Positions 49,545-49,730 of a DNA stretch of 64,000 nt are shown piece after piece. The DNA comes from Syntrophorhabdaceae bacterium (lineage in GTDB: Bacteria; Desulfobacterota; Syntrophorhabdia; Syntrophorhabdales; Syntrophorhabdaceae). The stretch is from contig CAXXUO010000008.1 of NCBI GenBank assembly GCA_963666485.2, forward strand, positions 64,001 to 128,000. The letters are read 5' to 3'. Within the stretch, counting starts at the first letter, position 1; every line of letters begins with the position of its first letter. Both the position numbers and the translations under genes were made by a program. Below the pieces are notes generated by a model that did not search any database, was not told where the DNA came from, and worked only from the letters and a program-made list of their open reading frames with translations.

Positions 49545-49730
49545 CCCGTGGAATATCACGAACAATCCATGATAGAAAAGAGAAAAAGGTTGCCGGTGTG
49601 GCAGGCCGTAAAAACCAGGGGATGATATCCCGTATCCAAGCTCGGGCCGCCACACCTTCTCCTTATAAACCCGGACAGTTGCAGGGGACTCGCAGGAGAT
49701 CCCGCATTGCACAAGGAAGGGACACGGGAA
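49545..49730 (+). ncRNA. Putative IS110 bridge RNA (target-binding and donor-binding loops); ends approximate
   Basis: Stem GGTGTGGC/GCCACACC enclosing AAAAACC and ATCCAAG (match insertion site); second loop with ACAGTTGC and ACAAG (match circle junction). Confidence 0.85.

Follow-up and report, generated by a model that had tools for sequence, protein, structure and literature searches.

The closest described systems are the bridge recombinases IS621, known together with its bridge RNA from Durrant 2024 (PMC11208160) and Hiraizumi 2024 (PMC11208158), and ISCro4/IS622 (Perry 2025, 10.1101/2025.05.14.653916, a study with a screen of 72 orthologs; PDB 9t56). According to the two IS621 reports, the recombinase is a tetramer, its DEDD/serine site is composite, strands are exchanged at a CT core and handshake bases pair. 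Durrant 2024 also describes a promoter across the joined ends of IS110 circles, notes that some orthologs natively match the right guide over 7 nt, and aligned thousands of RNA-target pairs. More recently, single-strand copy-out has been argued for IS621 (2026 preprint, 10.64898/2026.08.31.748434). That members of the IS110 family target repetitive extragenic palindromes (REPs) has long been known.

The element described here lies in a window of 64,000 nucleotides, the whole stretch of DNA that was analysed. On sequence grounds it is very probably an insertion sequence of the IS110 group that has moved recently and acts as a bridge recombinase of the IS621 type aimed at the REPs of its host, and every sequence-level feature of IS621-type membership is present. 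The mechanism class has been known since 2024; the element is a clean new example and leaves the mechanism unchanged. With its target, donor and guides all legible, it adds a compact (311 aa), recently mobile candidate bridge recombinase from an anaerobic lineage. Its anatomy, its boundaries, its site preference and the covariation of both guide-flank pairs and stems were established directly.

Similarity to IS621 extends to the CT core, a left-end RNA with the target loop ahead of the donor loop, the TGTAT right donor, the linker context, with GCCGT preceding the left guide and CCGGACAG at the donor loop, the junction promoter, the handshake positions, the DEDD and serine residues and a REP-type target. 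The protein, however, is distant (125.9 bits, E 2e-35, over residues 5-302), the donor reads ACAGTTG where IS621 has ACAGTAT, and the target is (A)AAAAC-CT-TGGAT as opposed to ATCAGGC-CT-AC. The left guide is 1 nt shorter, with a spacing from CG to position 7 of 7 nt against 8 in IS621 (judged by eye), and the native match of the right guide spans 7 nt whereas wild-type IS621 uses 4. ISCro4/IS622 likewise has two loops and a 14-base recognition scheme, but other guides and another host. Putative RNA-guided insertion into REPs is shared with ISPpu9/ISPpu10 and ISPa11, which differ in repeat type and host. ISPa11 belongs to the IS1111 group and has a downstream RNA and subterminal inverted repeats, unlike the element described here. 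The IS1111 group is defined by subterminal inverted repeats of 11-13 bp and a downstream non-coding region (PMC11187229). Here the best 12-nt match between the ends is 8/12 and the long end lies upstream; because subterminal repeats are lacking and the RNA is upstream, the element falls outside that group.

A sister element, matching our relative L078 by eye, is contained in Durrant 2024 (Supplementary Data 1) and was among the RNA-target pairs aligned in 2024. It appears there as covariation input only, with a row in both the donor and the target inputs. The sister is 85% identical in protein and at 193/219 nt of the left end; it shares the right guide ATCCAAG and the donor junction and has the CGTC-REP target CCAAAC-CT-TGGAT, but its left guide is ACAAAC, compared with AAAAAC here. 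The donor word ACAGTTGCTTGTAT occurs at least 188 and at least 424 times in two supplementary files of Durrant 2024. The element-specific words GTAAAAACC, GATATCCCG and AAAACCTTGGATCC were absent from the searched rows of supplementary file 4, which contain gaps, and the exact element was found neither among the searched rows of Durrant 2024 nor in print. A literature search found no paper naming both Syntrophorhabdus and IS110.

Anatomy of the element and its recombinase

The element consists of a left end of 212 nt, a gene of 311 codons and a right end of 31 nt, and so has the long non-coding end upstream and the short end downstream that are a feature of the IS110 group. Its parts and the adjoining host DNA are as follows.

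49531-50713: IS110-family element, 1,183 bp counting both cores
49413-49442, plus strand: left REP-dimer arm, host DNA, with CGTC tag, 9-bp stem, 5-nt loop and CCA tail
49524-49530, plus strand: left target GGAAAAC, host DNA; AAAAC precedes the core in all 5 copies
49531-49532, plus strand: left CT core, placed by copy comparison and rebuilt empty sites
49533-49540, plus strand: right donor arm TGTAT, which shares bases with the -10 box TATGAT (49535-49540)
49745-50680, plus strand: IS110 recombinase, 311 aa, PF01548 and PF02371, with D9, E53, D95, D98 and S233
50693-50698, plus strand: -35 box TTGACA, N17 from the left-end -10 box after end joining
50705-50713, plus strand: left donor arm ACAGTTG and right CT core (core 50712-50713)
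50714-50743, minus strand: right REP arm, host DNA, whose tail gives the right target TGGAT (50714-50718)

A CT core is present at both ends of the element and a single CT in the empty sites. When the ends were compared, no end-to-end inverted repeat was found inside the element; a repeated dinucleotide core without terminal inverted repeats is a further feature of the IS110 group. The four other copies in the genome diverge from the window copy exactly at both core positions, and the rebuilt empty sites align over the junction with 16-71 paralogous empty REP sites per copy. The element boundaries are thereby confirmed independently, in agreement with the CT cores at which a preliminary description of this DNA had removed the element. 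Another left boundary at the look-alike CTTGGATT (49461-49468), with 69 bp of cargo, was considered and rejected: the other copies start at the equivalent of 49531, and that 69-bp stretch resembles the spacers of other REP dimers.

Joining of the two ends in silico rebuilds a candidate sigma-70 promoter, TTGACA-N17-TATGAT, which was recognised by consensus match only and had been overlooked in the preliminary description. TTGAC stands close to the right core in 20 of the 28 distinct guide pairs found among relatives (see below). In the one RNA run, reads fell on the REP part only, and the one raw-read DNA run (X23) gave 0 reads. No circle junction was present among the joints listed for the contigs of X1 and X3, and contigs drop rare forms.

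The recombinase scores 239.5 bits against NCBIfam NF033542 ('IS110 family RNA-guided transposase'; cut-off 140). Its PDB matches are ISCro4 and IS621 only, with ISCro4 as the top structural-database match (134.6 bits, E 4e-38). All five catalytic residues are kept, D9, E53, D95, D98 and S233 aligning to D11, E60, D102, D105 and S241 of IS621. The protein therefore has both the DEDD RuvC-like domain and the Tnp domain (PF02371) with a conserved serine by which the IS110 family is recognised. The recombinase frame is open across the whole bridge-RNA region (49532-49744) in the 6 closest guide pairs and in 12/28 overall, and gene callers lengthen the protein to 382-395 aa. Although an open frame, this region is probably non-coding. 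Beside the element, a 522-aa ORF (47742-49310, minus strand) encodes what we take to be a protein with a MerR-type N-terminal DNA-binding domain and an adenylate/guanylate cyclase domain.

The candidate bridge RNA

The presence of an IS621-type bridge RNA in the left end is supported by the following predicted parts, all on the plus strand; the RNA would start near 49546.

49547-49571: predicted 5' stem-loop of the RNA, from the fold; CATGGA/TCCATG in close relatives
49595-49656: target-binding loop, outer stem and inner hairpin (49619-49631)
49610-49616: left target guide AAAAAC and core C; T49609 is linker, and A49617 does not read the core T
49634-49640: right target guide ATCCAAG, 7 nt, reading CT-TGGAT; exact at 4/4 right flanks
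49641-49642: target-loop handshake bases CT, by analogy to IS621 nt 81-82 (PMC11208158)
49670-49721: donor-binding loop, CCC/GGG outer stem and inner hairpin (49685-49703)
49675-49682: left donor guide ACAGTTGC, identical to 50705-50712
49706-49715: discontinuous right donor guide AT...ACAAG, with ACAAG at 49711-49715
49716-49717: handshake bases GA of the donor loop, of which G can pair with target position 7 (C)

The outer stem of the target loop is formed by GGTGTGGC (49595-49602) and GCCACACC (49649-49656). The stems and the four guide words reported in the preliminary description were each found in their places, and its layout of a target loop and a donor loop agrees with the structure obtained from relatives, in which each loop has an outer stem and an inner hairpin. 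Within the window, the guides of the donor loop match the joined ends exactly. The handshake C of the target loop is complementary to donor position 7 (G) in the window, a C that the anchor applied to relatives required. When the 212-nt left end was shuffled 20,000 times by mononucleotide, the right-target word arose 322 times, the left-donor word 59 times, the left-target hexamer 1,883 times and ACAAG 6,763 times; all four guide words together arose in none.

Folding by itself supports the proposed structure weakly. In the fold of a 196-nt stretch of the RNA only the target loop appears open and the donor loop is partly closed, since the donor guides partly pair with each other, and the stability of the stretch is unremarkable (z -1.38; 23/200 shuffles as stable). 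Folded alone, the target loop gave a z of -4.1 against mononucleotide shuffles. In an alignment of 32 sequences, 95.5% of the 764 cells of the four helices are paired, the structure having been derived from the same alignment; 0/500 shuffles reach the observed value, and slid controls give 38-52%. Two-sided changes occur in 18/24 helix pairs, and in the outer stem of the target loop in 11/13.

A search of the bridge-RNA region against Rfam returned no significant family, the best match being sX15 on the minus strand (30.1 bits; gathering threshold 55). As no curated bridge-RNA model matched in Rfam, a model was built from the relatives, with the window among its training sequences.

Guides, flanks and REP targets

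Relatives were gathered from 61 genomes together with GTDB contigs and metagenomes, and 154 loci were obtained; among named records, Syntrophorhabdus MAGs (83% aa) come closest, and that genus is probably the host's. Recombinase matches were present in 149 rows, the window included, and 50 of these were kept, having both ends, both flanks and all anchors. The remaining 99 were dropped as partial genes (28), for identity below 40% (22), for flanks cut by a contig end (15) or for want of one anchor (34). The kept rows collapse to 28 distinct guide pairs, and to 8 after de-clustering. Because ends were located by donor words only, the flanks stood outside the fit; the left end of the window row was placed by coordinates.

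Across the 28 pairs the right guide agrees with the right flank at 132/140 bases (permuted mean 41.5) and the left guide with the left flank at 120/196 (permuted mean 62.4), values reached in 0/20,000 permutations in either case, although such counts overstate significance because the relatives are kin. After de-clustering, the 8 pairs gave 40/40 for the right guide (1/20,000) and 30/56 for the left (13/20,000). The claim that the element has a target specificity of its own is thus upheld in that guides track their own flanks across relatives. Position by position, the seven left-flank bases match in 6, 9, 18, 20, 22, 21 and 24 of the 28. The first of the seven corresponds to the linker U, since the distance from the conserved CG to target position 7 is 7 nt, as it is in 23/28 relatives. 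The handshake base of the donor loop complements target position 7 in 23/28 (permuted mean 17.1; 12/20,000). On the donor side, the right guide is concordant with the left end in 28/28 (CAAG with TGTAT in 25, CTAG with AGTAT in 3), and the left guide with its end in 27/28, a count that is partly circular because the guide itself located the end.

Several relatives, read from their sequences, are apparent cases of natural retargeting. L076 (87% aa) has the guide ACCCAAG and is located in a TGGGT variant of the REP; L079-L085 have GTTCCAG and are inserted before GGAAC; L087 has TTGGTAG and is inserted before ACCAA. Such retargeting gives indirect support to the putative activity and reprogrammability of the element. 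The relatives form a natural reprogramming series, in which the first base of the left guide is loose and the right guide strict. There is also a counter-case, L077 (87% aa), which occupies the same REP site with mismatched guides and was removed by the anchors. One guide fits poorly in L048, L092 and L115, and L060 has an intact RNA and a right end without a core. The target of L079-L085 (80-85% aa) is not a CGTC REP and often lies within 7-nt tandem repeats (CCTGAAA-type). In L088 the target-plus-left-end sequence repeats a short way past the right end, a pattern that suggests either a copy in tandem or an assembled circle. Two close relatives, L086 and L134, are interrupted by what is presumably an IS21-type element (istA/istB-like).

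Within the genome there are 4 full copies, identical in protein and over the whole element, and 1 truncated copy. The left flanks of the five are GGAAAAC, GCAAAAC, CCAAAAC, GAAAAAC and GAAAAAC, and the right flanks of the four full copies all begin TGGATCCCGG. The preliminary description had proposed that flanks of other copies be compared with AAAAC-CT-TGGAT; 5/5 left flanks and 4/4 right flanks fit. Against six flank bases, the left target guide matches the five copies at 5/6, 5/6, 5/6, 6/6 and 6/6, its first base being mismatched in 3/5.

The right target is the tail of an abundant CGTC-type REP palindrome, a point that had escaped the preliminary description. CGTC-3/4 REPs are described as having a CGTC tag, a stem of 8-9 bp starting from AT, a loop of 4-5 nt and a CCA tail, and as forming dimers (PMC3733652). 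The target repeat has the CGTC tag, a 9-bp stem from AT, a 5-nt loop and the CCA tail, and occurs in inverted dimers; the arms at 49413-49442 and 50714-50743 are a perfect 30-nt inverted repeat. A pattern search of the genome counted 305 REP heads, of which 30 are perfect AAAAC-CT-TGGAT heads (4 occupied, 26 empty), 11 have CT-TGGAT with a different left side, 47 have CT-TGGG and 217 are other heads. All four insertions fall in the perfect class, with a hypergeometric probability of 8e-5 among the 305 heads, of 0.012 among the 88 CTT-headed heads and of 0.043 for GGAT over GGG heads alone. Exact empty AAAACCTTGGAT words number 27 in the genome, all at REP-like heads.

The CGTC-type REP family itself is split into several subfamilies (ACT-, GCT-, CCT- and AAAACCTT-headed), with at least 305 heads in all. 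No RAYT/Y1 transposase (PF01797) was found in the genome, which is 99% complete, and no orphan or non-autonomous bridge RNA beyond the five copies among the 150 of 826 candidates scored. The fifth copy (C4:148775-149200), which ends after codon 68, retains the -10 box of the junction and a complete bridge RNA whose donor-loop hairpin has 3 nt inserted in its loop. Beyond it lie a different repeat (TTAAGGACGTCCCC units) and further REPs.

Mechanism, competing readings and the sX15/asX7 locus

For this element we infer transcription, protein binding, circle formation and catalysis. Excision or copy-out would join ACAGTTG to TGTAT across a single CT core, and the junction promoter TTGACA-N17-TATGAT would then drive an RNA of ~180 nt from the left end. 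The donor loop would pair with the joined-end junction and the target loop with (A)AAAAC-CT-TGGAT, which in one subfamily of the CGTC-type REP dimers forms the inner tail. By analogy with IS621, a recombinase tetramer with a composite DEDD/serine site may exchange strands at CT, with handshake bases assisting the exchange as IS621 structures suggest. An intergenic repeat as target would offer dozens of harmless landing sites.

We raise more tentatively the idea that the clade is a distinct bridge sub-architecture, which we consider improbable. It would combine right-shifted specificity, re-aiming of guides within the genus and a possible structural gate at the REP hairpin. In detail, the left guide would effectively be of 5-6 nt, the right guide of the full 7 nt and both handshakes in place, with guides re-aimed between repeat variants (TGGAT, TGGGT) and the unrelated GGAAC. 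Should this be true, and should native fidelity or efficiency exceed that of IS621/ISCro4, the element would prove useful for editing, as an ortholog programmed by different rules.

The gate in question would make guide pairing necessary and the REP hairpin that adjoins the right target on its 3' side a second determinant of specificity. All 4 full copies do adjoin a 9-bp hairpin that starts inside the right target, in mirror image of the 5' target stem-loop of ISPpu10 (10.64898/2026.03.19.712850). However, perfect 12-nt sites occur in the genome at REP-like heads exclusively, so that effects of sequence and hairpin are inseparable within this genome, and the sites of L079-L085 precede short tandem repeats or unique sequence with no hairpin evident by eye; we regard the gate as unlikely. 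A little less likely again is that the working RNA is a processed seekRNA of ~60-75 nt comprising the target loop only, the ends being recognised in large part by the protein, or by a donor-loop piece separate from it. ISEc21, of the IS110 group, co-purifies with a 74-nt seekRNA of which 58 nt are enough (PMC11187229), and the Xanthomonas RNA asX7 (70 nt) covers just the target loop of a homologous locus. Yet the donor guides keep their conserved positions, the right one changes together with the left end in 28/28 pairs and the donor-loop stems are kept; moreover, such a form bears on how the RNA is processed and not on whether it guides.

It is highly improbable that the left end is an N-terminal coding extension or a plain 5' UTR with coincidental matches, the protein alone selecting REP sites. 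The frame is open from 49532 (382 aa), in the closest guide pairs as in the window, and the folding z is only -1.38. Against this, in-frame stops fall in the region in 16/28 guide pairs, AGGGGTG, which resembles a ribosome site, lies upstream of the ATG at 49745, the guides change along with flanks more than 1 kb away and the stems show two-sided changes. Extension of the recombinase coding sequence into the left end is thus close to refuted by covariation, in favour of the bridge RNA.

The weak minus-strand match to sX15 in the window is accounted for by the sX15 locus itself, the opposite strand of which resembles a bridge RNA. On plasmid pXCV183 this strand scores 58.2 bits with the model built from relatives.

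NC_007507.1, ~116381-116535, minus strand (L155:1882-2036): candidate relic bridge RNA at sX15/asX7

The left donor guide is the same there, and after it comes a short GIDV-type start with a stop after 24 codons; in our reading the latter is an IS110 remnant, for which tblastn gave no significant match. The RNA asX7 (116528-116459) has been verified by Northern blot (PMC3300014). Judged from sequence, the locus would be a relic IS110 bridge RNA of which asX7 spans the target loop alone, and sX15 would be the antisense of asX7. A literature search found no paper naming both asX7 and IS110; the Durrant 2024 data hold a row that by eye is near-identical to the bridge RNA of the sX15 locus. For sX15/asX7 (RF02234), 10 homologs have been reported in S. 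maltophilia K279a, and this Rfam family may represent bridge RNAs read in reverse complement.
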